The notes below the pieces were generated by a model that saw nothing but the letters and a program-made list of their open reading frames with translations, was not told the origin of the DNA and did not search any database. From Sulfolobus acidocaldarius DSM 639 (GTDB taxonomy: Archaea; Thermoproteota; Thermoprotei_A; Sulfolobales; Sulfolobaceae): a stretch of DNA of 32,000 bases. The stretch is taken from positions 2,130,001-2,162,000 of the forward strand of contig NC_007181.1 in the NCBI RefSeq assembly GCF_000012285.1. The letters are read 5' to 3'. Positions within the stretch are counted from its first letter, which is position 1, and each line of letters begins with the position of its first letter. The translations under genes and the position numbers were made by a program. Positions 1-19,250 of the stretch are shown piece by piece.

Positions 1-240
1 AATAGGTTGGAAGGTATACTTGAGGTCAGCGTAAATGTCCTCAACCATCTCACTTAAATCAGCTCCTACACAAAATCCCCTACCTTCTCCAGTCAGAATC
101 ACTGACTTAACAGTAGGATCAGCGTTTAATTTTCTTAATATCGATATCATATCATTCCTTGTTTTTAGGTTAAGTGCATTCAATTTTTCAGGTCTATCGA
201 ACTTTACTATTGCATAACCATCTTTGTTCTCAACTATCAT
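1..240 (-). CDS. Enoyl-CoA hydratase/isomerase family protein, N-terminal part (gene continues past the left window edge)
   Basis: The reverse-strand ATG at 240..238 overlaps the TGA (239..237) of the upstream gene as ATGA. Eighty codons stay open to position 1. The translation MIVENKDGYAIVKFDRPEKLNALN...VILTGEGRGFCVGADLSEM is a typical crotonase-fold N-terminus. It is missing from the ORF track because the window truncates it. Confidence 0.75.
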   Translation of the reverse strand, partial: MIVENKDGYAIVKFDRPEKLNALNLKTRNDMISILRKLNADPTVKSVILTGEGRGFCVGADLSEMVEDIYADLKYTFQPI

Positions 241-1004
241 TCTTCCCACCTGGGTTTTCTCTTTTCTAGGAACGCCTTCATACCCTCTTTAGCTTCTTCG
301 CTAGCTAGAGCTACATAAAAGTTTCTCCTCTCTATGTCTAAACCCTGTTGAAGATTAGTCTCTAATGCTCTATTTACAGCTTCCTTTGCTAAAATTAAGG
401 AGAATAAGGGCTTTGAGGCTATTTCATTAGCTAATCTAATAGCCTCATCTATCAGTGAACCGTCTGGAACAACCTTAACCACTAATCCCATATCTTTAGC
501 CTCCTTGGCAGAAATGAGTTCACCAGTTAGTACCATCTTCATTGCGTTATACTTTCCTACTGTTCTAGTCAATCTCTGTGTACCACCTGCACCAGGGATT
601 ATACCCAGGTTAATTTCAGGCTGACCAAATTTAGCTGATTCAGATGCAATGATTATATCACAAGCCATAGCAAGTTCGAGTCCTCCACCTGCTGCCACAC
701 CATTAACAGCAGCTATTACAGGTTTCTTAAAAGCCCTCATTTTCTCCCATAAAGGCATATGACCTTTAAGTACAATTTCTTTTAAAGGAGTGTCGACCAT
801 TTCTTTTACATCTGCACCAGCTGAAAAAGCTTTACCTTCTCCTGTAATTATCACAACTTTTACTGGAGACTTCTCCAGTTCGTCAAGAGCGTTAACTAGA
901 TCATCCACCATTTTAAAGTTTATTGCATTGAGCCTGTCAGGTCTATTTAATTTTATGATACCAATCTTTTTATCCTTCGTCTCGAGCTTTATTGTCTCGT
1001 ACAT
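237..1004 (-). CDS. Enoyl-CoA hydratase (crotonase family)
   Basis: Crotonase signatures are present: LNRPDRLNA, ITGEGKAFSAGADVKEM and AAVNGVAAGGGLELAMACD. The ORF-track start at 1007 is a TTG; the adjacent ATG at 1004..1002 (MYETIKL...) is the more likely start. Confidence 0.9.
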   Translation of the reverse strand: MYETIKLETKDKKIGIIKLNRPDRLNAINFKMVDDLVNALDELEKSPVKVVIITGEGKAFSAGADVKEMVDTPLKEIVLKGHMPLWEKMRAFKKPVIAAVNGVAAGGGLELAMACDIIIASESAKFGQPEINLGIIPGAGGTQRLTRTVGKYNAMKMVLTGELISAKEAKDMGLVVKVVPDGSLIDEAIRLANEIASKPLFSLILAKEAVNRALETNLQQGLDIERRNFYVALASEEAKEGMKAFLEKRKPRWEE

Positions 1005-1046
1005 CAATATTTAAGCTACCTACAAAAATAAAAATTCATAACAAAA

Positions 1047-2276
1047 TTATGATGATAATTTCCTTATGTCAAAGGATTCGTCCTTCAGCTTATCTACCTT
1101 ACTCTTTATGTCTACCTTATCTTGAATTAACTTATTTATAGCCTCTAATTCACTCATATCTCTGTTGAATGCAACATAACCTATAACTAACCCTCCTTTA
1201 ACATAAATTACATTCAAGGATTTCTTGTCAAAATTACCCCTCATAACATAGTCATCATACCCAGTTGTCTCCCCACCAGACTCTATATGGAGGTCAAATA
1301 TATCGGACCAAACTGTAGACAAAAAGTTATAACTCTCATTTTGACCCATCATATTTCTCGCAGCTAATTGACCAGTATAATATGCGTTATTCCAGTGTTC
1401 TATCCTCCTCCTTTTTCCTGAGACTGGATCAAGAATATTAGCTACATCTCCAGCAACATAAATGTCTTCCTTAGCTTTTAGATGTTCGTCTACTAATATT
1501 CCGTTGTTAACTTGTAATTCGTTAGCTATCTCGACATTAGGGCTTATACCTACAGCCACGAGAACCATGCTACTCTCAATTTTCTTTCCACCAGACGTTA
1601 TTACACTATTAACCCTTTGGCTTCCTTCGAACTCCTTAACACCTTCGTTCAGAAGGAAAGTCACACCCTTATTCTCAAAGTACTTCCGTACCATTTCAGA
1701 AACTTTTTCATCCACAAACGTACTCCATATGAAAGGCTTTACCTCTATTACCACAGGCTCAAAACCTAGGCTCCTGAGACTAGCGGCTACCTCAACACCT
1801 ATGAAGCCTGCCCCAACAATTACTGGCTTTTTACCGTGTTTCAAATCCTCCTTAATTGAATCTGCATCACTTAAAGTTCTAAGATAATGAACTCCATTAA
1901 GATTCTCGCCATGGATACCAAGTTTCCTAGGCTTTCCCCCTGTTGTTATGAGCAATTTATCAAAGTTCAGTGTTTGTCCTGTGGAGAGTGTTAAAAACTT
2001 CTCCTTCACATTTAACCTTTCGACCGTAGTGTTAAGCATTACTTTCAGGTTATCCCGTTGATAAAATTCAGGCTTTTCAAAGAATAAACTGTCCCTATCC
2101 CTTTCACTCCTCATATACTCCTTAGATAATGGAGGTCTATCATAAGGTAAAGAACTATCACTAGTAACTAGTGTAATATTTGCCTTAGGGTCTATGTTTA
2201 ACATCTCTTTTAGTGCGTGATAACCAGCTATTCCACTTCCTATAATAACATACTTAGAGGTAAGTTTTGATGACAC
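1047..2276 (-). CDS. FAD-dependent pyridine nucleotide-disulfide oxidoreductase, ferredoxin/rubredoxin-reductase-like
   Basis: There are two Rossmann motifs (VIIGSGIAG near the N-terminus, VIVGAGFIGVEVA mid-protein) plus YVAGDVA and a reductase-type C-terminal domain. The ORF-track start (2318) is a TTG that adds 14 aa before the Rossmann fold. The GTG at 2276..2274 gives MSSKLTSKYVIIGSG and has an ATTATATAC TATA-like box about 25 nt upstream. Confidence 0.85.
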   Translation of the reverse strand: MSSKLTSKYVIIGSGIAGYHALKEMLNIDPKANITLVTSDSSLPYDRPPLSKEYMRSERDRDSLFFEKPEFYQRDNLKVMLNTTVERLNVKEKFLTLSTGQTLNFDKLLITTGGKPRKLGIHGENLNGVHYLRTLSDADSIKEDLKHGKKPVIVGAGFIGVEVAASLRSLGFEPVVIEVKPFIWSTFVDEKVSEMVRKYFENKGVTFLLNEGVKEFEGSQRVNSVITSGGKKIESSMVLVAVGISPNVEIANELQVNNGILVDEHLKAKEDIYVAGDVANILDPVSGKRRRIEHWNNAYYTGQLAARNMMGQNESYNFLSTVWSDIFDLHIESGGETTGYDDYVMRGNFDKKSLNVIYVKGGLVIGYVAFNRDMSELEAINKLIQDKVDIKSKVDKLKDESFDIRKLSS

Positions 2277-2356
2277 ATCTAATATATCAATAACGTAGTA
2301 TATAATCTCGTATTTCAAATAAGAGTTTATTAATTATCAAACGCTAGTTTAAAAAT

Positions 2357-3517
2357 ATGAGAAAGGTCGCAGTTATAGGTGTAGGACACTCTAAGTTTGG
2401 AAAGAGAGATGACGTAAGTATCCAGGAATTAGCTTGGGAGTCAATAAAGGAGGCCTTTGAAGATGCTGGAGTAACCCAGAAGGATGTTAATACTGTGATA
2501 TTAGGTAGTACTGCATACAGAGGTGTTGAACTTTATCCAGGACCTATTGTAGCTGAGTACTCAGGTTTAACAGGAAAAGTACCCATGAGAGTAGAGGCTA
2601 TGTGTGCTACAGGTCTCGCAGCTGCTCTAACAGCCTACTCCCTTGTAGCATCTGGTCTAGCTGAAATAGCTATGGCTGTGGGCGTGGATAAAATGACTGA
2701 GGTCGATACTTCAACCTCTTTAGCAGTGGGAGGAAGGGGAGGAAACTACCAGTGGGAATATCACTTTTACGGTACTACATTTCCTACTTATTATGCTCTT
2801 TACGCTACTAGACACATGGCAGTCTTCGGTACAACAGAAGAACAAATGGCTCTAGTATCGGTTAAGGCACACAAATATGGAGCAAGTAATCCTAAGGCTC
2901 ACTTCCAAAAACCTGTCACAGTTGAGGAAGTGTTAAAGTCTAGGGTTATTTCATGGCCTATTAAGCTCCTTGATGCATGTCCAATTAGTGATGGTTCCGC
3001 AACAGCAATATTTGCCTCGGAAGAGAAGGTGAGAGAGCTAAAGATAGATTCACCAGTGTGGATTAGTGGAGTAGGATTTGCTAATGACTACGCATATGTT
3101 GCGAGAAGAGGAGAGTGGTTAGGATTTAAGGCTACAACATTAGCTGCTCAGGACGCTTATAAAATGGCTGATATTACGCCTAATAGTATAGAAGTTGCTA
3201 CAGTTCATGATGCGTTTACCATAGCAGAAATAATGGGGTATGAAGACCTAGGATTTGTAGAGAAAGGTAAAGGAGGAAAGTTCATAGAGGAGGGACAAAG
3301 CGAAAAAGGAGGAAAAGTCGGTGTGAACTTATTTGGAGGCTTAAAGTCTAAAGGGCATCCTTTGGGTGCTACTGGCTTATCAATGATTTACGAGATAACT
3401 AAACAGCTTAGAGAAGAGGCAGGGAGTTTACAGCAACCACTTAAAAGATACACTGGACTGGTTCATAATGTGGGAGGAACAGGTCACTATGCATATGTTA
3501 TGGTTCTTAGAAGATGA
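2357..3517 (+). CDS. Thiolase-like acetyl-CoA C-acyltransferase (SCP-x / archaeal type)
   Basis: The nucleophile region VEAMCATGLAA and the C-terminal motifs GHPLGATG and HNVGGTG are present. Length is 386 aa with an ATG start. Confidence 0.9.
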   Translation: MRKVAVIGVGHSKFGKRDDVSIQELAWESIKEAFEDAGVTQKDVNTVILGSTAYRGVELYPGPIVAEYSGLTGKVPMRVEAMCATGLAAALTAYSLVASGLAEIAMAVGVDKMTEVDTSTSLAVGGRGGNYQWEYHFYGTTFPTYYALYATRHMAVFGTTEEQMALVSVKAHKYGASNPKAHFQKPVTVEEVLKSRVISWPIKLLDACPISDGSATAIFASEEKVRELKIDSPVWISGVGFANDYAYVARRGEWLGFKATTLAAQDAYKMADITPNSIEVATVHDAFTIAEIMGYEDLGFVEKGKGGKFIEEGQSEKGGKVGVNLFGGLKSKGHPLGATGLSMIYEITKQLREEAGSLQQPLKRYTGLVHNVGGTGHYAYVMVLRR

Positions 3518-3543: not shown

Positions 3544-3954
3544 TTAAACCTTATTTTCTCCCTTATTGCTCTGTTCTCTTTTTACAGAATCTAAGTGATA
3601 AGCCAGAGCTGTGACATGAGCAATTATTTTCCCATCCTCGTTCTTAACCACTATTCTATATAGCGAAGTCGTTCTACCCTTACTCTCTTCAAAACCTTCA
3701 GCAATTATTTTCTCACCTAGAGTTGCTTGTCTTCTAAAATCTATGTCCATATGAAGGGCTACAGAATTCCTCGAAAAGTTGCTTATGTATTCAAAAGCGG
3801 TATCGGCAAGAGCAAATATAAAAGAACCATGAACACCCCCGTGTATGTTGAGGTTTTCTTCCCTGACTTCAGCAGATACTTTAACATAACCTTCTCTTAT
3901 TTCCTCTAATTTTAAATGTAGATATTTTGCAAAATTGCTTTCTCTGAGGTTCAC
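3544..3954 (-). CDS. Hotdog-fold acyl-CoA thioesterase, PaaI/PaaD-like
   Basis: It contains NIHGGVHGSFIFALADTA, matching the PaaI-type N-x-x-G-x-x-HGG...aD motif. The protein is 136 aa. It has a GTG start 9 nt downstream of the stop of the PaaK-like gene. Confidence 0.8.
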   Translation of the reverse strand: MNLRESNFAKYLHLKLEEIREGYVKVSAEVREENLNIHGGVHGSFIFALADTAFEYISNFSRNSVALHMDIDFRRQATLGEKIIAEGFEESKGRTTSLYRIVVKNEDGKIIAHVTALAYHLDSVKREQSNKGENKV

Positions 3955-3963
3955 AGTAAATCC

Positions 3964-5250
3964 CTATTCCATAATAATTACCCTCTTACTCTTACCCTCA
4001 AATCTGGGCAAAGATCCTACCTTTATGAATTCTATTTCCGGTGTCACGAAAGCAACTGTCCTTATTTCCTCCACTATTTTATGCTTCAACTCGTTAGAAG
4101 GGTTCTCGACCTCTAATTTCAGTATCATTTTATGTTCATTACCTCTCCTGTCAAAAACCACTTGATATTCGGCAATCTCTGAATACTTCATTAAAACTAA
4201 GTTTATAGCAGAAGGGTATATCTTCACTCCTTTGTAAAATATAACATCGTCAATCCTGCCCTTTATTATACTTATTTTAGGGTAAGGAATATCATCATCG
4301 CTTTCAGTAATCTTAGTAATGTCCCTTGTTCTATACCTAATCAGGGGCACAGCTTCTTTAGAAAGAGTTGTTATAACTAATTCTCCTTCTTCTCCCTCAT
4401 CTAAAACTTCTCCAGTCTCTGGATCGACTATCTCAGCGATAAAATGATCTGTCCATATGTGCATCCCTTTATGATCGTCATAAGGACACTCCTGGGAAAC
4501 ACCTGGTCCCATAGCCTCTGTAAAACCATATATTTCTCTTGCACCCTCCTTTAGCGCTAACTCACTTTCTATCCTCTTTAGCATCTCCGAGGTCATTGCC
4601 TCTGCCCCCGGAATGGCAAGCCTCAAATTCAAGGTAGTTGGGTCAATGCCCAGTTTTTTGATGGTCTCAGCTACTACCAATTCATATGATGGTGTTCCGG
4701 TTATCACAGTAGCTTTAAAATCCTTTATAGCCTTGACCATTCCTTCGGTTCTCCCTGCACTCCACGGAATCACCTTTACTCCTATTTTCTCAGCCCCCTG
4801 TTGAAGACCAATCCCTCCTGTAAATAAACCGTAACCGTAAATATTCATCATTATATCATTCTTGTTTACGTTAGCAGTTTTGAGACACCTCGCTACCAGG
4901 TTAGACCAGACCTCGATATCATTAGTTGTATAAGCGTTTACAGTCGGTATACCTGTAGTTCCAGAGGTCATATGAAACCTTACAACCTTTTCAAACGGCA
5001 CAGCTAGAAATTCTCCGCCATATGGGTATGCCTTATCTCTAAGCTCTTCTTTTGTAGTAAAAGGGAGTTTTCTTAAATCTTCCACCGTTTTTATATCTTC
5101 AGGAGAAATTCTTCTCTGTTGAAAAAGCTTCCTGTAATACGGAGAATTCTCATATACGTAGTTTATAAGCCTTCTCAATCTCTTTTGTTGGATCTCCTTT
5201 ATGTCGTTCTTAGATAGTAGTCTAGGATTAGTTTCATCATATCCACTCAC
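3964..5250 (-). CDS. paaK: Phenylacetate-CoA ligase family adenylating enzyme (PaaK / coenzyme F390 synthetase-like)
   Basis: The short (428 aa) adenylate-forming architecture is typical of PaaK. It has the MTSGTTGIPT P-loop, YGFTE and a C-terminal ACT-like tail. Its GTG start overlaps the TGA of the upstream DUF35 gene (GTGA). Confidence 0.8.
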   Translation of the reverse strand: MSGYDETNPRLLSKNDIKEIQQKRLRRLINYVYENSPYYRKLFQQRRISPEDIKTVEDLRKLPFTTKEELRDKAYPYGGEFLAVPFEKVVRFHMTSGTTGIPTVNAYTTNDIEVWSNLVARCLKTANVNKNDIMMNIYGYGLFTGGIGLQQGAEKIGVKVIPWSAGRTEGMVKAIKDFKATVITGTPSYELVVAETIKKLGIDPTTLNLRLAIPGAEAMTSEMLKRIESELALKEGAREIYGFTEAMGPGVSQECPYDDHKGMHIWTDHFIAEIVDPETGEVLDEGEEGELVITTLSKEAVPLIRYRTRDITKITESDDDIPYPKISIIKGRIDDVIFYKGVKIYPSAINLVLMKYSEIAEYQVVFDRRGNEHKMILKLEVENPSNELKHKIVEEIRTVAFVTPEIEFIKVGSLPRFEGKSKRVIIME

Positions 5251-5630
5251 TCTACCACCTCAGCGATTATCCTCTGACCATCTGTAGATATCTTAACTTT
5301 ACTTCCTACTCTTGGTCTTCCCTTAATCCAAGCCATCACACTTACTTCTCCCAGTCTAACTATTCCAATCACGTAATCTGGATACTTCTCGAATCCTTGA
5401 GGTTTCTGAGACACAATACTATAAGTCATTAGCTCCCCTTCGCCCTGTAATTCAACCCATTCCATTTTATCTGAACCGCAATTTGAACAGTCCTTTTGAG
5501 GTGGGAAATATACAGAGTTACAGGCGACGCACCTTGTAGCTACTACCTTACCCTCCTTTAGTTTCTCTAGGAATTGGTCTGGATAGTTTATTTTATAGTT
5601 GTAGGTTATCGGTAGCCCGTCTACTTTCAA
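5247..5630 (-). CDS. DUF35 family protein (rubredoxin-like Zn ribbon plus OB fold), thiolase-associated scaffold type
   Basis: It carries the CVACNSVYFPPQKDCSNCGS (CxxC-x11-CxxC) zinc ribbon followed by an OB-fold-like C-terminus. At 127 aa the size is typical of the family. Confidence 0.85.
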   Translation of the reverse strand: MKVDGLPITYNYKINYPDQFLEKLKEGKVVATRCVACNSVYFPPQKDCSNCGSDKMEWVELQGEGELMTYSIVSQKPQGFEKYPDYVIGIVRLGEVSVMAWIKGRPRVGSKVKISTDGQRIIAEVVE

Positions 5631-5643
5631 AACCGTTACACCC

Positions 5644-6672
5644 TTAGAACACTGGAATGAAGTCGTCCTCGCTTATATCCTTTACTTCCTCTCCACTTAT
5701 ACCAAGTTCAGGCATATCAGGTAATTTTATCCCATATCTCTTCAAGGAAGCGCCTACTCTAAGCACAGCATCCTTCCATGCCTCCTCCTTTTCCTTCTCT
5801 GTGGGAATATAGAAGCCTGCATCTCTAGCTAGATCTTCCATTCTCTGATGGACTTCCAGGAACCAAGGAGGTAATTTCCAAAATTCCTTAGGGGGTTTGT
5901 AAGTGATTAGTGATAGGAACACAAAGCCAGCCCTAATTTGCTTCGTGACCAGTTTTTTCCTATCTTCGTTCATATTAGGGGCATTCTGGGTCATAATCAA
6001 ATGGGTAAAGGCATAGTGACGTGTCTCGTCAACAGCTGTATTCTTAAAAATCTTTGAAAATTCTTCATTCTTAGCATTCTTTCCCATGCTAGTGAACACT
6101 GTTGTGGCTGCTGCTTCTCCCATCATAAATGACGTGAATAATACATCAAGAGCGTATTTCTTGTAAGCGTCTAAGTAAGCTTTCCAATATCTTGATCCGT
6201 TCCACCAAACCCACTGAACATTTAACATTGCCTTCTTCTCGAGATCATCTTGAGGTTTGAAATTCAATGGGAAACCCTCCATTGCATTCTTTATAGCTAG
6301 TCCGCAAACTAAGTTATGCCTATTTTCGTCCCAGGTTATAGTTGTAAGTATTCCTCTGACTGCAGTATCCAAATGGTGCTCAAATGACTTTACTACTGCA
6401 TAAGCGAATACAGGGGTTGCATGATCGAAGTTTGATAAAAGACCATACCAATAGGCTATAGCCAGTCTCTGTTTCCTGTCTAATCCAGACATCCACTCCT
6501 TTACTCTCCTCCAATCAATGTTATCTTCGTCCCACTGCTCTTTTTTAGCCCTTCTATATAGTTGCCATGCTCTCTCGTTATCGAAATCCCATATTGGTGG
6601 ATATATATTATATTCAGGGTAAGTGGGTGACTCTTCAAAATTTATTGATTCATACTTATTCTCCTTACTCAT
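5644..6672 (-). CDS. Ferritin-like, R2-fold dimetal-carboxylate protein (putative oxygenase/oxidase)
   Basis: Two ExxH motifs (WDENRH, E116/H119; VDETRH, E216/H219) combine with candidate ligands D83 and E186. The spacings are 33/70/30, close to the RNR-R2/R2lox ligand spacing. The N-terminus has an R2-like WDEDNIDW...LDRKQR segment. It lies first in an operon with the DUF35, PaaK-like and PaaI-like genes. Confidence 0.7.
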   Translation of the reverse strand: MSKENKYESINFEESPTYPEYNIYPPIWDFDNERAWQLYRRAKKEQWDEDNIDWRRVKEWMSGLDRKQRLAIAYWYGLLSNFDHATPVFAYAVVKSFEHHLDTAVRGILTTITWDENRHNLVCGLAIKNAMEGFPLNFKPQDDLEKKAMLNVQWVWWNGSRYWKAYLDAYKKYALDVLFTSFMMGEAAATTVFTSMGKNAKNEEFSKIFKNTAVDETRHYAFTHLIMTQNAPNMNEDRKKLVTKQIRAGFVFLSLITYKPPKEFWKLPPWFLEVHQRMEDLARDAGFYIPTEKEKEEAWKDAVLRVGASLKRYGIKLPDMPELGISGEEVKDISEDDFIPVF

Positions 6673-6784
6673 AAAATTCTCACAATTTTTTATTCACCAT
6701 AATAATATTTAAAGTCATAATCAAACAAGTTAAATAAATAGGTATTATAAAAAGTAGCTAAATTAAAAATATTCATCAGGCAAT

Positions 6785-7633
6785 TTATATAACTTTAACA
6801 GGATTAACTAGGGAACCTATTCTCTCTACGTGAACTTCCATAGTAGTACTTTTAGCCTCAAGTTTGTATTCAGATGTATCTTCAGCGCCAGAATACCCTA
6901 CGGTTCCAGTTGTTATAACACTTAATTGGGGTATTGTGAGTATGGTGGAGAGCTCCCTTATAATCTCCTCGGGAGAAAATATGAACTCATCAGTTGTACT
7001 GTCTTGAATTACCTTATTATCATAAATGCTCATCATCCTAAGTCTGTCCAACTTAACCTCATCTGGAGTAGTTATAATAGAACCTAAAACTGCGAACGTA
7101 TCCCTATTCTTATTCCTAAAATGAGCACCCCTCACAATCATTCGTTTCACTACTCCATCATTAGGATCCCTCCTCCTCGCATAATACCAATCCTTACTAG
7201 CCTCACCCGGAGCCGTAACGTCATTAAATACAGTGTAACCTAGGATGTAATCTTGTATTTTTCCAGAATTTATGTTCCTCAATTTTTCCTTAATAATTAT
7301 ACCTATTTCCACCTCAGGTCTAATACCACTCTTAGGGGCATAGACTATATCTCCGTTTCCAACTACGATAGAGGGGAGCTTAATGAAAAATTTAGGAGTT
7401 CCCAGCATCTCTTTTCCTTCCTGTTTACTCGAGGCACCCAGCATTTTATAAGAGTTGACCAAGACACAGAAAATTGAAGCAGTTTGGACAGGAAGAATCT
7501 TTACAGATCGAATATCATAACTTCCACCTTTAGGCTCTTTATTAACACTCTCCATTTCGATAATATCATTTCCTATAACTTCTCCCAATCTTACCTTTCC
7601 CTGATACTCAAAGAAAACTAATTTCATTTTCAT
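6785..7633 (-). CDS. Fumarylacetoacetate hydrolase (FAH) family enzyme (HpaG/HpcE-like hydratase/decarboxylase/isomerase)
   Basis: FAH-family motifs are present: RPEVEIGIIIKE (metal-binding E-x-E) and GYTVFNDVTA. Its ATG overlaps the TAA of the upstream hpaB-like gene (TAATG). Confidence 0.85.
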   Translation of the reverse strand: MKMKLVFFEYQGKVRLGEVIGNDIIEMESVNKEPKGGSYDIRSVKILPVQTASIFCVLVNSYKMLGASSKQEGKEMLGTPKFFIKLPSIVVGNGDIVYAPKSGIRPEVEIGIIIKEKLRNINSGKIQDYILGYTVFNDVTAPGEASKDWYYARRRDPNDGVVKRMIVRGAHFRNKNRDTFAVLGSIITTPDEVKLDRLRMMSIYDNKVIQDSTTDEFIFSPEEIIRELSTILTIPQLSVITTGTVGYSGAEDTSEYKLEAKSTTMEVHVERIGSLVNPVKVI

Positions 7634-9105
7634 TACGCCTTAGGATTAGGCATCTGATCCATGATATCCCTTACCAATTTCACATATTCTCTTTTCCTAT
7701 CCTTAAACACTTCAGTGTACATTTGAGCCCATCTTATTGTGGGATCTCCTCTACTAAACCTATCATATTGTTCGTATCTCATACCACTCTCAGAGCCTAT
7801 AACATCCCACAATAGATTGAATAGTTTTACTCTTTCAAGAGCTGGTAGACCCTTTGATGCAAGGTATTTCTCAAGCATCGCCCTTTCCTCAGGGTTCTCA
7901 AAATCCCTTATACCTGCGGGTATGGGTATAGATGAACCAGCTGAAATGAGCCTAAGGATTTCGTCAACTCTAGGTAAAGCCCTCATGTTGAAATGACTAG
8001 CTGTGATGGAGATATAAGGATTGGGTCTATATATGTTTGGTAAGTATTCTCCATTTTCCTCAGCTGCTATTAATGCTGCCTCATTCAAAGTGAGGTAAAT
8101 CAGTATTTCTCCCAATTTTTCTTGGACATTAATGAAGTTATTGATACCAACTGATTCTGCAATAGCCATGGCTAACCCAGCGTAAAACTTCAATCTCGAG
8201 TAGTGTTGAATGGCAAAATGCCAATTAAACCATGTCCTTAGCTGAACAGTATGCCACATAAATCCTTCAATTTCTTCAGGCTTCTTGTAAAATATTATTC
8301 TATCCCATGGAATTAGAACATTATCTAAAACTAATATTGCATCAGATTCTTCAAATCGTGACGATATTGGATACTCGAATTCGCCTAGATTCTCCCTCGG
8401 ATAGAAGCCTCTTCTTGTTATGAATTTTACACCCTTTGAATTTCCTGGTATAGAGAAGAATATCGCATATCTGGGATCACTATCTCTCCTTATGTTAGGC
8501 AAATACCACAACATCTCAGCATAAGGTCCCGCAGTACATATCATTGCTGCACCTCTAACTATAACTCCCTCATTAGTTTCCTTGACAACACCTATCTGAA
8601 TATATGGATCCTCCCACTGAGATGGTGGTCTTGATCTGTCGTACATAGGGGCTACAATAGCGTGAGTATAGAATAGGTCTTTCTTAGTGGCTTCTTTATA
8701 AATATTTATCACATTCTCCATTATTTTACTTCCAAATACTTTACCAAAGTAATCCTCTGCATGTGCATAAAATACCATACTCCATATATTGAGATAGTCT
8801 GGACTCCTTCCGAAAAAGCCATAATAGTTGTCATAAATCCTGTTTAAACCTACCCTCATTTTCTTTAGGTCTTCTTTTGACCTGGGTCTGAAGAATGATA
8901 TACTTGTGTCTTCACCGACATCCCTGTTGTAGACTCTTAAAGCTTCGTCTTCCCAATGTAGATCATAGTATTTGGCTACTGTCTTAATAGGTATTTTAAA
9001 TGCGTGATGGTTTACTATATCTTCAACTTTTTCGCCATTATAGTAAACTTCTCCGTGATTTCCTTCCTTCAAACTTTTAATATATTCTTCTCCCCTTCTA
9101 ATCAT
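7633..9105 (-). CDS. hpaB: 4-hydroxyphenylacetate 3-monooxygenase oxygenase component family (HpaB-like, two-component flavin monooxygenase)
   Basis: The N-terminus [13 protein letters not shown]...[15 protein letters not shown], the GRSPDYLN motif and the ~490 aa length match my recollection of HpaB. The protein has only one Cys, which excludes a 4-hydroxybutyryl-CoA dehydratase Fe-S site. The ATG at 9105 overlaps the TGA of the upstream dioxygenase (ATGA); the ORF-track start at 9114 is a GTG. Confidence 0.85.
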
Positions 9106-10052
9106 GTATTCCACCCCCTTAAATTACCCGTAAAGGGATCCTCTACGGGAATCCATTCATTTAACCAAGACTCGGGTATAGGTCTTGACCAGTAATCACT
9201 CCTATATCTAAATTGTTCATAAGTCCAAACTACTGGTTTCCACTTATCTGGGTCTAGGACTACATAATCACCCGTGAAGAACTCTAGTCTTCCACCATTC
9301 GGATCTCTCAGGTAAATGTATACTCCTTGGGTAACACCATGCCTTCCAGGACCTCTCTCTATATAGTCCCATAGCTCTGCTGAAGCCATTATATCTGCAG
9401 CTCTTATAACGTCCCTTAAATCGTGGACGTAATATGTAAAATGATGAAAACCGGGTGTTTTTCTTGATGATTTGGATATAGCTAGATTATGAGAGTCACC
9501 AGACTTAGTTAGCCAGGAGACCATCTTCTTTCCTTCCTTATCTAGAAAAATTTCAGTTTCATAAAACCCTAAACTCTGGTAGAATTTTATTTCGTTCTCA
9601 AAAACATTGGAATCCACCATGAGATTTACGTGAGCTAATCTTATGGGTGAAACTCCCTTATGTATATGAAACTTCATTCTAATGTCATCAACGTACTCCA
9701 TATTCTCATAGAATACTGTAGGCATTCCACCAGTGTCAGAAAAGATTATTGCGTTATCCACTCCTTTTTCCTCGAATTTTCTCGTCTTAAGCCCACTAGC
9801 CTCAAGCTTTTCCCTCATCTTATCCACGTTTCTGACCCTAAAGGCTATATAGGATAACCCAGGTGACTCTGCCCTCTTGAGTACCAAACTATGATGCTGT
9901 CCTTCCTCGTATCCCCTCAGATACACATAATCACCATTCTTTTCTGTTTCATGAAAACCCAGTAGATCCCTGTAAAAGAAAAGAGACTTGTCCATATCTA
10001 TTACTCTGACACAAACATGCGATAGGCGGAGTACTTCGCTCATAATATACAT
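9102..10052 (-). CDS. Extradiol ring-cleavage dioxygenase (type I, two VOC/glyoxalase domains; catechol or homoprotocatechuate 2,3-dioxygenase-like)
   Basis: The architecture is a duplicated VOC domain. [14 protein letters not shown] starts domain 1 and [10 protein letters not shown] starts domain 2. Candidate 2-His-1-carboxylate ligands are HVNL, GFHHFTY and RLEFFTG. An alternative ATG start lies at 10043. Confidence 0.85.
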
Positions 10053-10131: not shown

Positions 10132-10764
10132 CTAGGTTAAATGAGTCAAGTAAAACTCAACTAATTTCTTTTCAGCTGACCTCAGGTGGTATAAAAACGT
10201 CACCTTACTTATGTTTAGCTTTTCTGCAAGTATATCGGCATTGGCTTCCCTAGGGTAATCTAAATATCCGTACTCGAAGGCAGCTTTCAATACTCTTACT
10301 TGTGATGGGGATAGATACGGGAAGAACATGTCATCTACTTGATCCACTTTTACCTCAATTAGCTCTCCATAACTCTTAAGTTGATCCACTATCTCATTAA
10401 CTGCAGTACTTGTAGTTATGAAGTCCCATAGCTCTTTCTCTTCCTTAAGCTCGTTTCTCAGGAATAGAGTCTCATAATCGTAAAGTAGACCTGCTATAGA
10501 ATTCCTATAAGTGTTAAGGAAATCTACATAGATATCAGAATCAAATTGGTTAACTTGCAATACCCTTAGTATTCCTTTATCCTTTGCTCTTTTCATTTTA
10601 CTTAACTCATTTTTCTTTGAGGAGGGGAAAATAACTCTAGCCCTCAAGTACCCCTTCTCAGGATAAACATGATAATTAATAGTATAACCACTGAGGTCAA
10701 CAGATGAAGTCCAACACTTATCATGGGCTATCAAAACTTTAACTCTGTTTAAATGCTTCTTCAT
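10132..10764 (-). CDS. Transcriptional regulator with a C-terminal HTH_10 (bacterio-opsin-activator-type) domain
   Basis: The C-terminus LSPSQVRVLKAAFEYGYLDYPREANADILAEKLNISKVTFLYHLRSAEKKL matches the HTH_10 consensus (LT-x-rQ-x-vL-x-A-x-x-GYfd-x-PR...). I do not recognise the N-terminal ~150 aa. Confidence 0.7.
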   Translation of the reverse strand: MKKHLNRVKVLIAHDKCWTSSVDLSGYTINYHVYPEKGYLRARVIFPSSKKNELSKMKRAKDKGILRVLQVNQFDSDIYVDFLNTYRNSIAGLLYDYETLFLRNELKEEKELWDFITTSTAVNEIVDQLKSYGELIEVKVDQVDDMFFPYLSPSQVRVLKAAFEYGYLDYPREANADILAEKLNISKVTFLYHLRSAEKKLVEFYLTHLT

Positions 10765-12032: not shown

Positions 12033-13856
12033 ATGATGAGCTGGGTTCCAGGCAAAGAGTGGATTGAAAAAAGCAATGTTTATCAATACATGATTTCCAG
12101 GAATATTCCCGATTTAGAGAAATTCCTTGAGTTCACATACAATGAGGCTTTTTGGGATGATTTTGTAAAAAACGTATTGAGTTTAAAATTTGAAAAACCC
12201 TATACGAAAACATTAGACCTAAGCAAAGGTAAACAATGGGCTAAATGGTTTGTAGACGGGAAAATTAATATCGCGGATCAGCTAGAGGAAAGTTCAAAAC
12301 CCTTGGTAAGGTGGATGAACGAAAGAGGTGAAAGTAAGACATTAACGTACAATCAAGTATTATATGAATCAAAGGCTGTTTCCTCATGGCTCAAAAGAAG
12401 ATATAAAAAGGGAGATAGAATTGGCATATATTTACCAATGATACCTGAAATAATTCCCATTTTCTTAGGGATTATCAGGGCAGGAATGATCGTAGTCCCA
12501 CTTTTCTCAGGTTTTGGAAAGGAACCAATAAGAGTAAGACTTGAAGACAGTGAAATGAAAGCTATATTCACTACAGATCTAACCACAAGAAAAGATAAAG
12601 AAATAAATCCGACTGAAAACCTAGAGGACTTTCAAGTAGATAAAATAGTAGTAGAAAGGGGAGGTAAGGCAAAGGTAAACTACATTTCGTATGATGAAGT
12701 TAAAAAGACAGCTGGTGATGGCTTAGAGAAGACCGAATCTGAGGATCCTCTAATGATAATTTACACTAGTGGTACGACTGGAAAACCTAAAGGCTGTGTT
12801 CACGTACATATGGGATTTCCAATAAAGGCTGCAGCTGATATCTATTTCCAGTTCGATATGAAGAATGGTGAATTACTTACATGGATCACTGACCTAGGGT
12901 GGATGATGGGACCATGGTTAATATTTGGTGGAATACTCTTACGTGGTCAAATAGGTCTATATGAAGGCTATCCAGGATTTGACCAAATTTCACATTTCAC
13001 TGAAGATTTTAAACCCGGTATTTTAGGACTTTCAGCTAGCCTTGTTAGATCATTTAAAGGAAGGGAAGGAAAGCTTCAAGTTAGACTTGCAGGAAATACT
13101 GGAGAGCCTATAGATCCAGAGAGCTGGAATTACCTGTATAGACTTATCGACCATAACCCAATAATCAACTACTCAGGAGGAACAGAAATTTCAGGTGGAA
13201 TATTGGGAAACTACGTGATAAAGGAAATCAAAGCGTCGTCGTTTAATGGTCCTTCTCCAGGTACAAAAGCTGATGTTTTCGATGAGTCTGGGAAAAGAGC
13301 ATCGCCAAATACTGAGGGGGAGTTAGTGGTTCTGTCTGTTTGGCCAGGGATGACGAGAGGATTCTGGAGAGATGAGAAGAGATATTTAGAGACATATTGG
13401 AGCAGATGGGACAATGTTTGGGTTCATGGTGACTTGGCTTACTACGACAGCCATGGATATTTTTACATTGTAGGTAGAAGCGATGATACAATAAAAGTTT
13501 CGGGAAAAAGAGTGGGTCCTGCTGAAATAGAGTCTGTGATCAATGCCCACCAGAAGGTGTTAGAATCAGCCTGTGTTGGGATCCCTGATCCATTGAAAGG
13601 AGAGAAAATAATCTGCTTTACGGTAACTAAGGAAGAGATTAATGAGAACGAGTTAATCAACTTCGCTCAGGATAAACTAGGAAAAGCCTTTTCTCCAGAC
13701 CGAATATTTCTTGTTAAGGAACTGCCTAAGACTAGAAATGCAAAGATTATGAGAAGGCTACTGAGGGCTATAATTCTCGATAAGCCACTAGGAGATATAT
13801 CGTCATTAGAAAACCCAAGTGCAGTTGAGGAAATCAGGAAAGTAGTTAAAGGCTAA
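12033..13856 (+). CDS. AMP-forming acyl-CoA synthetase (acetyl-/propionyl-CoA synthetase-like)
   Basis: It has the YTSGTTGKPKG AMP-binding motif, GDLAYYDSHGYFYIVGRSDDTIKVSGKRVGPAEIE and a C-terminal PKTRNAKIMRR. A TTTAAAT box lies about 24 nt upstream of the ATG. Confidence 0.9.
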   Translation: MMSWVPGKEWIEKSNVYQYMISRNIPDLEKFLEFTYNEAFWDDFVKNVLSLKFEKPYTKTLDLSKGKQWAKWFVDGKINIADQLEESSKPLVRWMNERGESKTLTYNQVLYESKAVSSWLKRRYKKGDRIGIYLPMIPEIIPIFLGIIRAGMIVVPLFSGFGKEPIRVRLEDSEMKAIFTTDLTTRKDKEINPTENLEDFQVDKIVVERGGKAKVNYISYDEVKKTAGDGLEKTESEDPLMIIYTSGTTGKPKGCVHVHMGFPIKAAADIYFQFDMKNGELLTWITDLGWMMGPWLIFGGILLRGQIGLYEGYPGFDQISHFTEDFKPGILGLSASLVRSFKGREGKLQVRLAGNTGEPIDPESWNYLYRLIDHNPIINYSGGTEISGGILGNYVIKEIKASSFNGPSPGTKADVFDESGKRASPNTEGELVVLSVWPGMTRGFWRDEKRYLETYWSRWDNVWVHGDLAYYDSHGYFYIVGRSDDTIKVSGKRVGPAEIESVINAHQKVLESACVGIPDPLKGEKIICFTVTKEEINENELINFAQDKLGKAFSPDRIFLVKELPKTRNAKIMRRLLRAIILDKPLGDISSLENPSAVEEIRKVVKG

Positions 13857-13883
13857 TATATTACACTACCCAATAATTAAAGT

Positions 13884-14159
13884 ATGAAACTGGATGAAAA
13901 TGAAATAAAAAGGAGATTAGGGGAAATCGAGGGATGGAGTTATGAAAATAATAAACTTAAGAAGACATTCAAGTTTAAGAATTTCTACGAGTCTGTGGAA
14001 TTTGTAAGGAAGATACAACCTATTGCAGATGAGATGGACCATCACCCTGACCTATGTGTGTATTATAATAGGGTTGTACTAGAGCTTTCGACTCACAGTG
14101 AGGGTGGAGTTACAGAAAAAGATTTTGAATTAGCTAAGAAAATAAATAAAATTCAATGA
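13884..14159 (+). CDS. Pterin-4-alpha-carbinolamine dehydratase (PCD/DCoH family)
   Basis: DEMDHHPDLCVYYNRVVLELSTHSEGGVTEKD fits the full PCD signature [EDKH]-x3-H-[HN]-[PCS]-x5,6-[YWF]-x9-[HW]-x8,15-D. The protein is 91 aa. Confidence 0.85.
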   Translation: MKLDENEIKRRLGEIEGWSYENNKLKKTFKFKNFYESVEFVRKIQPIADEMDHHPDLCVYYNRVVLELSTHSEGGVTEKDFELAKKINKIQ

Positions 14160-14202
14160 TAAGCGATAATCTTATTTTGTTTGATATCCATCAGAATTTT
14201 TT

Positions 14203-15855
14203 GTGAGACTTTTAGAACCCTTCAAAATAGCAGATGTTGAGCTAAAGAACAGGGTAGTAATGTCACCAATGATAACAAATTTCGGTACACCTGAGGGATA
14301 TCCAACAGAGACTCACATAAGATACTTTGTCAGGAGATCTTCACTTGGACTACTGATAACTGAGTACACATACGTGAATAAAACAGACGCTAGAGGTTCA
14401 CCCAATGAATTAGGACTATATACAGACGAATTTATTCCGAAATTCGCAAGACTGACAGAGGCAGTTCACAATCATGATACTAAGATATTTGTACAATTAG
14501 TCCACGTGGGAAGAAAGACTAGGAAAGCCTTAATATGGGGTAATAGTCCAGTTGCACCTTCCAACATACCATTAATTGATCCCGTAAGGGAAATGACAAA
14601 AGACGACATAAACAGAGTTATAGATGACTTCGTAAAGGCTGCAGAGAGAGCTGAAAAGAGCGGTTTCGATGGGATAGAACTACACGGAGCCCATGGATAT
14701 CTAATTGCACAATTCCTCTCTCCGGCTACAAATAAAAGGGAAGATGAATACAGGGATGGAGTGAAATTTCTGGAGGAGATAATTAAGGAAGTTAAAAGAG
14801 TTGTTTCGATACCTGTAGGATTGAGAATTTCAGCAACTGAGTTCGATCCTCAAGGATTAAATCCTGAGACTGTTGGAAAGATCGCCAAGAGAGTTGAGAA
14901 TTTATTAGATTATCTTCACTTGTCTGCGGGAAGGGACGGACCGTTAGGGGGCTCATCTTCATTTTATTATAAGGAGCCAAGCTATCTTGAAGAGGCTAAA
15001 GTAATCAGAAATCAGTTCGGAAAAACACTATTGGTTGCCGGTTCAATCCTGACAGTTGATGATGCAGAAAAAGTACTAGAGTTCGCAGATGCAGCAGTGT
15101 TAGCTAGACAAATTCTTGCTGATCCAGATTGGCTAATAAAGGTAAAGGATGGTGGAAACATAAGACCTTGTATAAGATGTAACCAGCTATGCAGGCTAAT
15201 GGCTACGAGAGAAGTGAGATGCGACGTAAACCCTGAACTCGGTTGGGAACCTGTGGAGTTGAGAAAAGGGGAAGGAGAAGTGAACATAGTGGGTGGAGGA
15301 GTTACAGGACTAGAGATGGCGAGAGTTTTAGCGAAAAGAGGTTTTGAGGTTAAACTATATGAAAAAGATAGCAAATTAGGTGGGCAACTCAACGAATATA
15401 AAGATCCTTTCAAGAAAGCCTCCTTCATAAAGCTATTAGAATACTATGAGAAAGAACTAAAGAGGTTAGGAGTAAAAGTTTATCTCAACTCTTACATTAA
15501 ATCCATTGATGGTCATACGATATTTGCGGTACCCTCTCAAAGGCAACCTATATATCAAGAGTATAAGGGAGAAGTAATATTAGTGGACTCCAATTTGTAC
15601 GCCTATCAAGACTACATATTTGAGTGGGCAAAGCAAAACGAGGTCTATATTACAAGGAATTTATTCAAGGGGCTCGATAGAAATCGTGGTTATTTATTGG
15701 AAGAGAAATACAAAGAAATAGGAGTGAGGGAATGGGATAACAGAACTAAGCCAACAGTTCACATCCATGATGTAAGAAATAGTCAACAGTCCATAGGTCA
15801 ATCCATATCTAAAGCATTCTGGTATGCTGTGGAATACGATAACAGTAGAAAGTAA
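14203..15855 (+). CDS. Old Yellow Enzyme-family NADH:flavin oxidoreductase with Fe-S motif and one C-terminal dinucleotide-binding domain (2,4-dienoyl-CoA reductase-like)
   Basis: The N-terminal TIM-barrel shows OYE motifs ([19 protein letters not shown]). A cysteine cluster [25 protein letters not shown] follows, then [34 protein letters not shown] (FAD/NAD Rossmann). It starts with GTG. Confidence 0.85.
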
Positions 15856-16189: not shown

Positions 16190-19100
16190 ATGAAAGGGTA
16201 TTACATGTATCCAGATATAAGAAATGATTTTGTGGCTTTTACAACTGATGACGATGTATGGCTTATGTCACTGAAAGACATGAGACCGATTAGAGTTACG
16301 ACTGACACTGGTGTTTCCATAAAACCCAAGATTAGCCCAGACGGTAAAAGGATAGCCTTTACTACATTATGGTTGAGGAGCGGAAAGCAAGGTGCTGATG
16401 TATTTATTGTAGAGGACGGTAGGTCCAAAAGGGTGACATATTTTAACCGACCAACCACATGGGTTGCAGGCTGGCTATCAGATAAGGAGATAATGGTAAT
16501 AACAGATTACCATACACCATTTAACGCGTGGACAGAGGCTTACAAAGTAAATGTAAATGATGAGAGTTATGAACCTCTTCCATATGGAATAGTTTCAAAT
16601 ATTTCAATAAAAAATGAGACTATTGTAATAGCCAGAGGATATCAAGATTTACCCTTCTGGAAAGGATACAGAGGAGGAACCAAAGGGGAACTATGGATAT
16701 CCTTTGATGCTGGAGAAACTTTCAAGAAATTTCTCAGCCTAAATGGAATAATTAGCCACCCCATGATATTAAATGACAGAGTCTACTTCTTGTCGGATCA
16801 CGAGAGTGTAAGTAACCTTTACTCAGTGGACATGCAGGGGGAGAACTTGCTAAAACACACTAACTTCTCAGATTATTACTGTAGAAATGCCAGCTCGGAT
16901 GGAAAAAGGATTGTGTTCCAGAGAGCTGGAGATATTTACTTGTTTGACCCACAGACTAATAACACTATTAAGCTCGAAATCGAGGTATTCACAGAGAGGA
17001 AGAAAAAGAGACCAAAATTTGTTTCAACTATGGAATACTTAACCGATGTAGATGTTAATCAGAATTACATTGGGCTAATAGTCAGAGGTAAACCTTTTAT
17101 CATGAGACCATGGGAAGGTCCTGTAGTACAATTAGGTGAAAAGCAGGGGGTAAAATACAGGGAATTACAGTTTCTATCAAATGAGGATATTGCTGTTGTA
17201 GATAGTAATGAAAATAAACTGTTGATTTTATCAAAGGACGGAAAGATAAAGCAAAAAGTAGAAAAGGATTTTGGTAGAATCGAAAAAATCAAAGCGTCTC
17301 CAGATGGTAAAAAGCTCCTAATATCGAACAACAGACTAGAATTATGGTTATATGACTTAGAATCGAAAAAGGAAAAACTTATAGATAAAAGTTCTTATGG
17401 GATAATTCGTGAGTTTGATTGGCACCCTACAGGTGAGTGGTTTAGCTACGCATTCCCTGAGGGATTTAGAACCCAGTCCATAAAGATAGCTAACGTATCA
17501 GGAAATATTATAAGAGTAACTAGCCCTTATGCGTTTGACTTTTCGCCTTCTTTTGACCCAGATGGAAAATTCCTTTACTTCTTATCGGCTAGAACTCTTG
17601 ACCCTAGTTCAGACAAATTTATATTTAACATGAGCTTTCAGCGTGTAATAAAGCCTTACTTAGTGGTTTTAAGTAAAGCCTACTCCCCATTTAATCAACC
17701 ACTTGAAGAAGTAAAACATGATAAAAATGTTGACCCTGAAGGTATTCAGTATAGGGTTATACCATTCCCAGTAGAGGAAGACAACTATGTAAAAATTAGC
17801 GGAGCTAAATCAAACAAGGTATTACTGTACTCGCAACCCATAAGAGGGCAACTAAATCCACAAGAGGATACTTTAGGAAAAATTGAGATATTCGATATTG
17901 AAATCAAATCGAAAGAGGTCTTTGCTGAGAACGTAAGAAACTTCGTTATAACCAAGGACGGTTCGAAGGTTCTACTAGTTTTCAAAGACAGTATTAGACT
18001 CGTTAATGCTACTACGAAGCCAGATTTAAGCACACAGGGAATAAAGGGAGGAGTAGTTGATACAACTAGAATTAAGGTACTTGTAGACCCAGAGAAGGAA
18101 TGGAGACAAATGTTATTTGAAACATGGAAATTGATGAAGGAGAACTACTGGAGTGCAGAAAAATTGCAGGGATGGGATAGCGTTCTAGATAAGTATGAAA
18201 AACTTCTAGATAGAGTAAGCACTAGATACGAGCTTTCTGATGTATTAAAAGAAATGCAGGGAGAAACTAAAACCTCCCACTCGTATGAGACTCCATATGA
18301 TTTTGAGACCGCAGAACCATTAGTGATAGGAGGTTTAGGTGCAGAATTTAACTATGATGAACAAAGGGAATGCTTCAAAATAGTCAAGATATACTCTGGT
18401 GATCCAACAAATGAAGGAGAAAGAAGTCCATTAAAAGATCCAGGTGTAGAACTAAACGAAGGAGATTGCATTTACAGTATTGATGGGGAAAAGGTAAGAA
18501 AGGGAAGTATAAATTCACATTTCATAAATAAAGATCAAGCTATCCTTGAGGTTCTAACCAGTGACGGGAAAAATAGAACCGTAAGTGTAAGGTTAATGAA
18601 AGATGAGAAGTATCTAATGTATCGTCATTGGGTGGAGAAAAACAGGGAGTACGTACATAAGATGAGTGACGGAAAATTAGGATATGTCCATGTACCTGAT
18701 ATGATGTATCAAGGCTTTGCCGAATTCTTCAGATTGTTTATATCTGAGTTTTATAGACAAGGTCTGATAGTGGACGTGAGGTTTAACAGGGGAGGATTCA
18801 TTTCAGGTTTAATATTACAAAGATTATTACTAAGGAGAGAAGGATATGATGTGCCTAGAAATGGCGAACGTATTCCGTTCCCCTATTTGTCTTCTCCTAA
18901 AGTAATAGTAGCTGTGACTAATGAAAATGCAGGCTCTGATGGGGATATATTCTCTTACCTATTCAAAAAGTATAAGATAGGTATATTAATAGGTAGAAGG
19001 ACATGGGGTGGAGTTATAGGAATAAGCCCACGTCATCTATTAGTCGATAAAACAGTTGTTACACAGCCTGAATTTGCTGCAATTTTTGATGAAGTAGGAT

Positions 19101-19228: not shown

Positions 19229-19250
19229 GGGAAATCGAACAACAATCTCA

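Follow-up and report, generated by a model that had tools for sequence, protein, structure and literature searches.

A predicted diiron protein of the R2 fold in phenylacetate-like gene clusters of Sulfolobus acidocaldarius, other archaea and Burkholderiales: a candidate oxygenase of arylacetyl-coenzyme A

We analyzed a 32,000-nucleotide stretch of the Sulfolobus acidocaldarius DSM 639 chromosome (the window; positions 2,130,001-2,162,000 of the 2,225,959-bp genome), centering on a gene that is predicted to encode a diiron oxygenase of the R2 fold (the diiron gene and the diiron protein). The gene is a single open reading frame (ORF) on the minus strand, at positions 5644-6672 of the window, with its ATG at 6672 and its stop at 5644, and it encodes 342 amino acids; on the plus strand, this interval is closed by numerous stops. 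Since the operon immediately upstream, which encodes an FAH-family enzyme, HpaB, and a dioxygenase, has been assigned to Saci_2293-2295 (PMC6746942), we infer that the diiron gene is Saci_2292. Its product is 98% identical to a protein of Sulfolobus acidocaldarius SUSAZ. A search of the literature for locus tags found no mention of Saci_2287-2292, and searches for an alternative epoxidase, or for links between R2-like proteins and phenylacetyl-coenzyme A (CoA), found no earlier description of the family. The genes and features surrounding it are as follows, in window coordinates:

1..249, minus strand: crotonase ECHb, PaaG-like, first 83 codons only, running off the window edge (TIGR02280, 166 bits, below the cut-off)
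237..1007, minus strand: crotonase ECHa, PaaF-like (NF007239, 283 bits, below the cut-off)
1047..2318, minus strand: ferredoxin-NAD(P)+ reductase-like flavoprotein, HcaD-like, with Pyr_redox_2 and Reductase_C domains; candidate electron supplier
2357..3517, plus strand: thiolase of the SCP-x/archaeal type (NF009228, 793 bits), which may act together with the DUF35 protein as the PaaJ equivalent
3544..3954, minus strand: PaaI-like hot-dog thioesterase (TIGR02286, 94 bits; cut-off 119)
3964..5250, minus strand: PaaK-like arylacetate-CoA ligase (TIGR02155, 433 bits; equivalog cut-off 646)
5247..5630, minus strand: DUF35 protein with zf-ChsH2 and OB_ChsH2_C domains, starting 13 nt past the diiron stop and overlapping the ligase start
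5644..6672, minus strand: predicted R2-fold diiron oxygenase, 342 amino acids, with metal ligands, an invariant C123, and a conserved C-terminal tail
6673..6784, minus strand: AT-rich intergenic region of 112 nt, upstream of the diiron gene; a TTTAAATA box lies ~40 nt ahead of the ATG
6785..10052, minus strand: FAH-family enzyme, HpaB, and HpaD (Saci_2293-2295), which make up a module for meta-cleavage of 4-hydroxyphenylacetate
10132..10764, minus strand: HTH_10 regulator, present in the Pyrobaculum cluster too

The diiron, DUF35, PaaK-like ligase, and PaaI-like thioesterase genes form a tight minus-strand operon (13-nt gap, 4-nt overlap, and 9-nt gap, respectively) that is convergent with the thiolase gene, beyond which lie the ferredoxin-reductase-like flavoprotein and the two crotonases. 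PaaF was the top named function for ECHa and PaaG for ECHb, with both scores below the equivalog cut-offs. The ferredoxin reductase is clustered with the diiron gene in S. acidocaldarius only, and the Hpa module adjoins the paa-like module only in S. acidocaldarius and Pyrobaculum. The 112-nt upstream region with its TTTAAATA box is a probable promoter of the diiron gene itself. A pirin gene also lies upstream, beside the HTH_10 regulator.

The original prediction had proposed a dimetal site made up of D83, E116-x-x-H119, E186, and E216-x-x-H219 (spacings of 33/70/30), an R2-like N-terminal segment EQWDEDNIDW, and a cysteine, Cys123, in place of the radical tyrosine. All of these residues are where they were said to be: the ligand spacings hold, EQWDEDNIDW begins at residue 45, and DENRHNLVC, which ends in the cysteine, begins at residue 115. 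An alignment of 22 homologues, reaching down to 36% identity, revealed that E116, H119, C123, E186, E216, and H219 are invariant, and that position 83 is D in 18 sequences and E in 4. D115, D215, and R218 are likewise invariant. The motif D-E-x-x-H thus occurs in both halves of the protein (DENRH and DETRH), with the form D-E-x-R-H being invariant in the second half only. The metal pair held by this site would be Fe/Fe or Mn/Fe.

An AlphaFold2 model built from the homologue alignment (predicted local distance difference test [pLDDT] of 88.2, predicted template modeling score [pTM] of 0.86) places the proposed ligands on four long helices (residues 66-83, 103-130, 175-199, and 203-233), as expected for a four-helix dimetal site. 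When this model was compared with the PDB using Foldseek, structure 6i90 of R2lox (a ligand-binding oxidase of the R2-like type) ranked first (TMq 0.55, E 7e-4, 15% identity) and was followed by many R2 structures, with TMq values of 0.45-0.56, E values of ~1e-3, and 10-17% identity. PaaA was not among the 50 best matches. The C-terminal tail (PELGISGEEV...PVF, residues 315-342, window 5644-5730) is conserved from archaea to bacteria; it is predicted to be disordered (pLDDT <50), is missing in the archaeal members P0045 and P0047, and recalls the partner-binding tail of R2.

At the sequence level, the diiron protein scores 21.2 bits against Pfam Ribonuc_red_sm (PF00268), under the cut-off of 33.6, whereas a search of the whole genome with the same model showed that four other paralogues, which are R2lox-like, pass it. 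The match to Pfam AurF (PF11583) is also under the cut-off (17 bits, or 18.5 bits in the genome search, against 29.6), so that the database names "aminobenzoate oxygenase/AurF" given to this protein rest on a sub-threshold match to a half-site. No NCBIfam model matches the protein, and its distant relatives of 300 amino acids have no Pfam family membership. A search of the PDB with the single sequence returned nothing meaningful, and a profile search of PDB sequences gave marginal hits to S. acidocaldarius R2lox I (E 0.0015), AurF (0.05), and R2lox II (0.73). Profile-profile comparison using hhalign, with small alignments on both sides, related the family to the four R2lox-like paralogues of the same genome at 81% probability (E 1e-5) and to PaaA-family sequences at 1%. 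The likeness to R2lox that had been noted earlier holds as a remote relation, but the protein is probably not R2lox proper, and it carries Cys where R2lox has Phe.

The family has few members. Searching 1.84 billion representatives with a profile yielded 67 clusters at E<1e-30, many of which are fragments. Three distant relatives (P0116, P0122, and P0123) keep the overall pattern and have lost several ligands (E116, E186, and E216 are replaced); judging by these replacements, they may be non-catalytic structural paralogues comparable to PaaC.

With the aim of placing the gene in context, we mapped the window proteins onto the 20-kb regions that surround 21 homologues in genomes of Thermoproteota. 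Six genera of Sulfolobaceae share the arrangement PaaK-DUF35-thiolase / ECHa-ECHb-(PaaI)-diiron-3HCDH, in which 3HCDH denotes a 3-hydroxyacyl-CoA dehydrogenase. Pyrobaculum oguniense has the same paa-like set together with the Hpa genes and the HTH_10 regulator, and an unrelated archaeal contig carries 3HCDH-ECH-ECH-diiron-thiolase. The link to CoA-ligase, thioesterase, and DUF35 genes, which had been suggested from the S. acidocaldarius sequence, is thus conserved, and it is much stronger than that sequence alone could show: PaaG/F/H-like genes, a thiolase, a dedicated reductase, and PaaX are also part of it, and it spans two domains of life. The DUF35 part of that link is indirect, running through the thiolase. 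We considered whether the DUF35 protein partners the diiron protein directly and rejected this, because the DUF35 gene follows the thiolase gene in other Sulfolobaceae; its domains and position suggest that it is a non-catalytic partner of the SCP-x-type thiolase.

The phyletic pattern among 47 Sulfolobaceae genomes agrees with the synteny. The diiron gene is present in 32 of them and a PaaK orthologue in 31, with both found in 31 and neither in 15; the lone genome with a diiron gene and no PaaK orthologue is a draft of 94% completeness. Where both occur, they usually lie ≤7 kb apart. Close relatives are not independent counts, but inside three genera the two genes are present or absent together. 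In one genome (G429), the diiron gene is interrupted by TGA codons at two in-frame positions and the PaaK orthologue is broken into two pieces (C1:1427535-1428536 and C1:2223117-2224365), which looks like joint decay of the pair.

We also assessed the occurrence of the canonical epoxidase subunits. PF05138, the family of PaaA and PaaC, matched proteins in 11 of the 47 Sulfolobaceae genomes, weakly (68-114 bits), each of these genomes also having the diiron gene. The remaining 21 diiron-containing Sulfolobaceae genomes gave no PF05138 match, nor did Pyrobaculum, and PaaB (PF06243) was not detected in the S. acidocaldarius or Pyrobaculum genomes. In genome G213 of genus g3 (L073:6198-12445), crotonase, PaaA-like, thiolase, DUF35, PaaK, and 3HCDH genes occur in this order, so that a PaaA-like module can join the same paa-like cluster; the two R2-like diiron genes of this genome are found at distances of 75 and 180 kb from that block.

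The bacterial branch of the family is ~40% identical to the archaeal proteins, forms a well-supported clade in the tree, and is rare, being found in 6 of the 301 Burkholderiales genomes searched. In all eight bacterial loci examined, a reductase with the domains Fer2-FAD_binding_6-NAD_binding_1 (BenC/MmoC-like) is encoded directly downstream of the diiron gene, and in two of them, from Paucibacter soli and L068, PaaX-like regulator genes flank the pair. Four Burkholderiales genomes (loci L068-L071) carry the diiron and reductase genes divergent from paaN-paaG-paaH-paaI-paaK-paaJ. In L071, the products of paaN, paaG, paaH, paaI, paaK, and paaJ score 917, 369, 697, 168, 702, and 726 bits, respectively, each above its NCBIfam equivalog cut-off, and the gene order is the same in L068-L070. 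None of the four genomes, one of which (4.0 Mb) is essentially a single contig of 3.96 Mb, has a match to PF05138 or to PF06243. PaaG and PaaN act on epoxide-derived intermediates of the pathway. A paa operon with both enzymes needs an epoxidase, and the only oxygenase at the locus is the diiron and reductase pair; this is the strongest single argument for the function proposed here.

We postulate that the diiron protein is the oxygen-activating part of a two-component diiron monooxygenase acting on phenylacetyl-CoA or a close arylacetyl-CoA. For the Sulfolobus protein we regard this as reasonably probable, and for the Burkholderiales orthologues we hold the same function with greater confidence. 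The predicted product is most likely ring-1,2-epoxyphenylacetyl-CoA, formed in other organisms by PaaABC(D)E. In the pathway that we envisage, the PaaK-like ligase would form the CoA thioester, and a reductase would supply the carboxylate-bridged dimetal site (D/E83, E116, H119, E186, E216, and H219) with two electrons. The electron donor would be the fused Fer2-FNR protein in bacteria and, in S. acidocaldarius, perhaps the neighboring ferredoxin reductase together with a ferredoxin. Oxygen would then be activated at the site and one of its atoms placed on the ring. The PaaG-like and PaaF-like crotonases, the 3-hydroxyacyl-CoA dehydrogenase, and the thiolase with its DUF35 protein would convert the ring-opened CoA ester to acetyl-CoA and succinyl-CoA, with PaaI rescuing CoA from stalled intermediates.

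Judged by gene context, the best reading is that the diiron family displaces PaaABCDE without being its orthologue. Both systems would occupy the same place in the pathway, in paa clusters with PaaK, PaaI, PaaG, PaaH, PaaJ, PaaN, and PaaX; both need a [2Fe-2S]-flavin reductase; and both belong to the ferritin-like diiron superfamily. A sequence relation is nevertheless undetectable (hhalign probability of 1%, no PF05138 match), and one catalytic polypeptide with a reductase stands here in place of PaaA, PaaB, PaaC (plus PaaD), and PaaE. The partner reductases differ too, the ferredoxin domain being N-terminal in the BenC/MmoC-like protein and C-terminal in PaaE. The benzoyl-CoA epoxidase BoxAB follows the same logic, namely a diiron oxygenase with a separate reductase, an aromatic CoA thioester as the substrate, and a crotonase-family enzyme acting on the product. 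However, BoxB is a larger, unrelated-looking diiron protein, and the diiron clusters lack BoxC- or BoxD-type genes and have a ligase of the PaaK type. We give about even odds to the broader proposal, that a single-polypeptide diiron enzyme derived from R2/R2lox, served by a simple reductase, represents a third, independent solution to aromatic CoA-thioester epoxidation, one that is the main oxygenase of this pathway in Sulfolobaceae and Pyrobaculum and has displaced PaaABCDE in a lineage of Burkholderiales.

Several observations weigh against the assignment as an arylacetyl-CoA epoxidase. S. acidocaldarius itself has a weak PaaA/PaaC-like pair, identified as Saci_1770/1769 (PMC6101591), which scores 103 and 75 bits to PF05138:

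G000:C1:1531396-1532870 (L014:9396-10871), minus strand: PaaA-like/PaaC-like pair Saci_1770/1769, PF05138

Beside this pair lie a third crotonase gene, a gene of the FAH family, and an ORF with distant likeness to PaaX (L014:15518-16315). S. acidocaldarius is therefore not short of an epoxidase candidate, and the reaction of the diiron protein is less certain there. We accordingly rejected an argument from the absence of PaaA for S. acidocaldarius itself; the argument for substitution rests on the 21 Sulfolobaceae genomes, Pyrobaculum, and the four Burkholderiales genomes. The diiron proteins of L068-L071 are 90-96% identical to each other, and such close relatives amount to about one evolutionary event. 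Two Burkholderiales genomes carry both the diiron and reductase pair and canonical PaaA/C, so the two systems may not be fully redundant. The archaeal clusters have no evident oxepin-CoA hydrolase or aldehyde dehydrogenase, the archaeal lineage f53 has a diiron gene and no PaaK-like ligase, and in several archaeal lineages the only conserved neighbor of the diiron gene encodes an AbrB-PhoU protein. In addition, R2lox, which has the nearest solved fold, binds fatty acids.

A rival reading is that the protein belongs to the same CoA-thioester pathway but takes a different substrate or serves a different step, acting for example on a substituted arylacetyl-CoA or a benzoyl-CoA-type ester, in rescue or deoxygenation, or in an O2-dependent desaturation or oxidation of the ring-opened acyl-CoA that would replace missing dehydrogenase steps. 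Canonical PaaA/C accompanies it in two genomes of Burkholderiales, and PaaA/C-like genes do so in 11 genomes of Sulfolobaceae, which points in this direction, as do the lack of acyl-CoA dehydrogenase and aldehyde dehydrogenase genes in the archaeal clusters and a second diiron paralogue of genus g3 that lies outside any paa context. Yet in four genomes the lower and middle paa operon is complete and bona fide while PaaA/B/C offer no other epoxidase candidate, the obligate reductase partner fits a two-electron monooxygenase, and the co-occurrence with a PaaK-type ligase is tight. We regard this as the most serious competitor to arylacetyl-CoA epoxidation, while considering it unlikely.

A ring hydroxylase is rather less probable still. 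Such an enzyme would make 2-, 3-, or 4-hydroxyphenylacetyl-CoA, which PaaI would hydrolyze, leaving hydroxyphenylacetate to meta-cleavage by HpaB and HpaD. CoA-dependent triads of ligase, hydroxylase, and thioesterase are known for salicylate and 4-hydroxybenzoate. The location of the gene in S. acidocaldarius and Pyrobaculum, between PaaK/PaaI and FAH-HpaB-HpaD and with a shared HTH_10 regulator, would suit this scheme, and PaaI is listed by NCBIfam as a hydroxyphenylacetyl-CoA thioesterase. Adjacent Hpa genes, however, occur in just two of the lineages examined, and most Sulfolobaceae clusters are without PaaI. The constant partners across the six Sulfolobaceae genera, locus L009, and Burkholderiales are instead crotonases, 3HCDH, and thiolase, joined in bacteria by PaaG and PaaN, all of which act on epoxide-derived intermediates.

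We see little chance that the linkage to paa genes is incidental and that the protein is an R2lox-type oxidase of a fatty acid or lipid, or a regulatory or iron-linked ferritin-like protein. R2lox structures are the best fold match and the R2lox-like paralogues the best profile match, and the diiron protein and R2lox share an N-terminal LY..ak.e.WD motif and the six-ligand pattern, neither having the radical Tyr. The recurrence of an AbrB-PhoU neighbor in five archaeal lineages, some without nearby paa genes, also fits. Against this, the folds resemble each other only weakly (TM ~0.55, 10-17% identity), the protein falls under the Pfam cut-off that the four R2lox-like paralogues pass, and the Tyr site is Cys here and Phe in R2lox. 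Moreover, the linkage to paa genes is both syntenic and phyletic and holds in two domains of life, and unlike R2lox, for which we know of no established substrate, the diiron branch has a CoA-thioester pathway context and, in its bacterial members, a dedicated reductase.

The idea of a class I ribonucleotide reductase (RNR) small subunit, which the R2-like fold and ligand spacing would allow, since the six-residue carboxylate/His site on a four-helix core matches that of R2 (PF00268), can be set aside almost entirely, because Cys123 replaces the radical Tyr in 22/22 homologues, the score is below the Pfam cut-off, the context is catabolic, and the Sulfolobus RNR is of class II (PMC5134839). 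The view taken in the original prediction that the protein is unlikely to be an RNR subunit is consistent with this, and no close homologue is an RNR subunit.

Two further groups of diiron enzymes were compared with the family. The N-oxygenases AurF and CmlI (PF11583) are also ferritin-like diiron proteins of similar size, and the weak Pfam match is to the second half-site. The extra His ligand of AurF, which we take to lie four residues before the second E and to correspond to T212 here, has no counterpart, as position 212 is T, V, I, or L and never His in the 22 homologues, and the diiron gene is not in a biosynthetic context. MmoX, the hydroxylase alpha subunit of soluble methane monooxygenase (sMMO), one of the bacterial multicomponent monooxygenases, has a doubled D-E-x-R-H motif and, at the fourth residue past its first His, a Cys (C151 of MMOH), and its partner reductase shares the MmoC/BenC type. 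In our family, the Cys that is invariant at the R2 Tyr position, the D-E-x-x-H motifs, and the reductase recall this arrangement, a resemblance that we take as a lead only. By contrast, there is no sequence match to these hydroxylase families, the diiron protein is far smaller (342 amino acids), and no beta or gamma subunits or coupling protein are encoded nearby.

The AbrB-PhoU protein mentioned above has 300-350 amino acids, with an N-terminal AbrB/MazE-type domain followed by one or more PhoU domains, and occurs in five archaeal lineages, including Marsarchaeota and two Thermoproteota families without nearby paa genes. It is encoded at the following positions:

L039:10545-11447, minus strand: AbrB-PhoU protein
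L049:10687-11634, plus strand: AbrB-PhoU protein
L007:11128-12057, plus strand: AbrB-PhoU protein
L051:953-1960, minus strand: AbrB-PhoU protein
L054:8574-9635, minus strand: AbrB-PhoU protein

It is next to the diiron gene also in L048, L053, L055, and L056, and it is not encoded in the S. acidocaldarius window. This protein might serve as a dedicated regulator or as a partner with a metal-related role. In Pyrobaculum oguniense, genes for a CoxS-like [2Fe-2S] subunit and a CoxM-like FAD subunit directly follow the diiron gene, and a molybdenum (Mo) large subunit is encoded 5 kb further on:

L004:11121-12411 and 17164-19236: CoxS/CoxM-like subunits and Mo large subunit of Pyrobaculum oguniense

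These genes may encode either an aldehyde oxidoreductase for the missing PaaZ/PaaN step or an electron donor of the diiron protein. In the S. acidocaldarius window, just past the regulator and pirin genes, the plus strand at 12033-15855 encodes an acetyl-CoA-synthetase-like ligase, a pterin-4a-carbinolamine dehydratase, and a flavoprotein resembling old yellow enzyme (OYE) and 2,4-dienoyl-CoA reductase. These genes fit an aromatic amino-acid catabolic island, although no pterin-dependent hydroxylase was seen.

Phenylacetate holds a central place in the catabolism of aromatic compounds and phenylalanine, and PaaA and PaaC serve as genomic markers for its pathway. In 2026, a survey covering 6,536 genomes used these markers, kept only those ligases that are co-localized with PaaABCDE, and reported archaeal paa pathways in Halobacteria only, calling them incomplete (PMC13186573). 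If the function that we propose is correct, surveys based on PaaABCDE overlook the pathway in Sulfolobales, in Thermoproteales, and in some of the Burkholderiales, and the family would fill the missing step and explain the "incomplete" archaeal paa pathways of genome surveys. We consider the diiron family to be a new enzyme lineage for a known type of reaction, its function being predicted from sequence and gene context. It would represent a minimal two-component, thermostable aryl-CoA oxygenase, built on an R2 scaffold with Cys at the position of the radical Tyr, and would provide the first physiological substrate class for an orphan R2lox-like branch of the ferritin superfamily.

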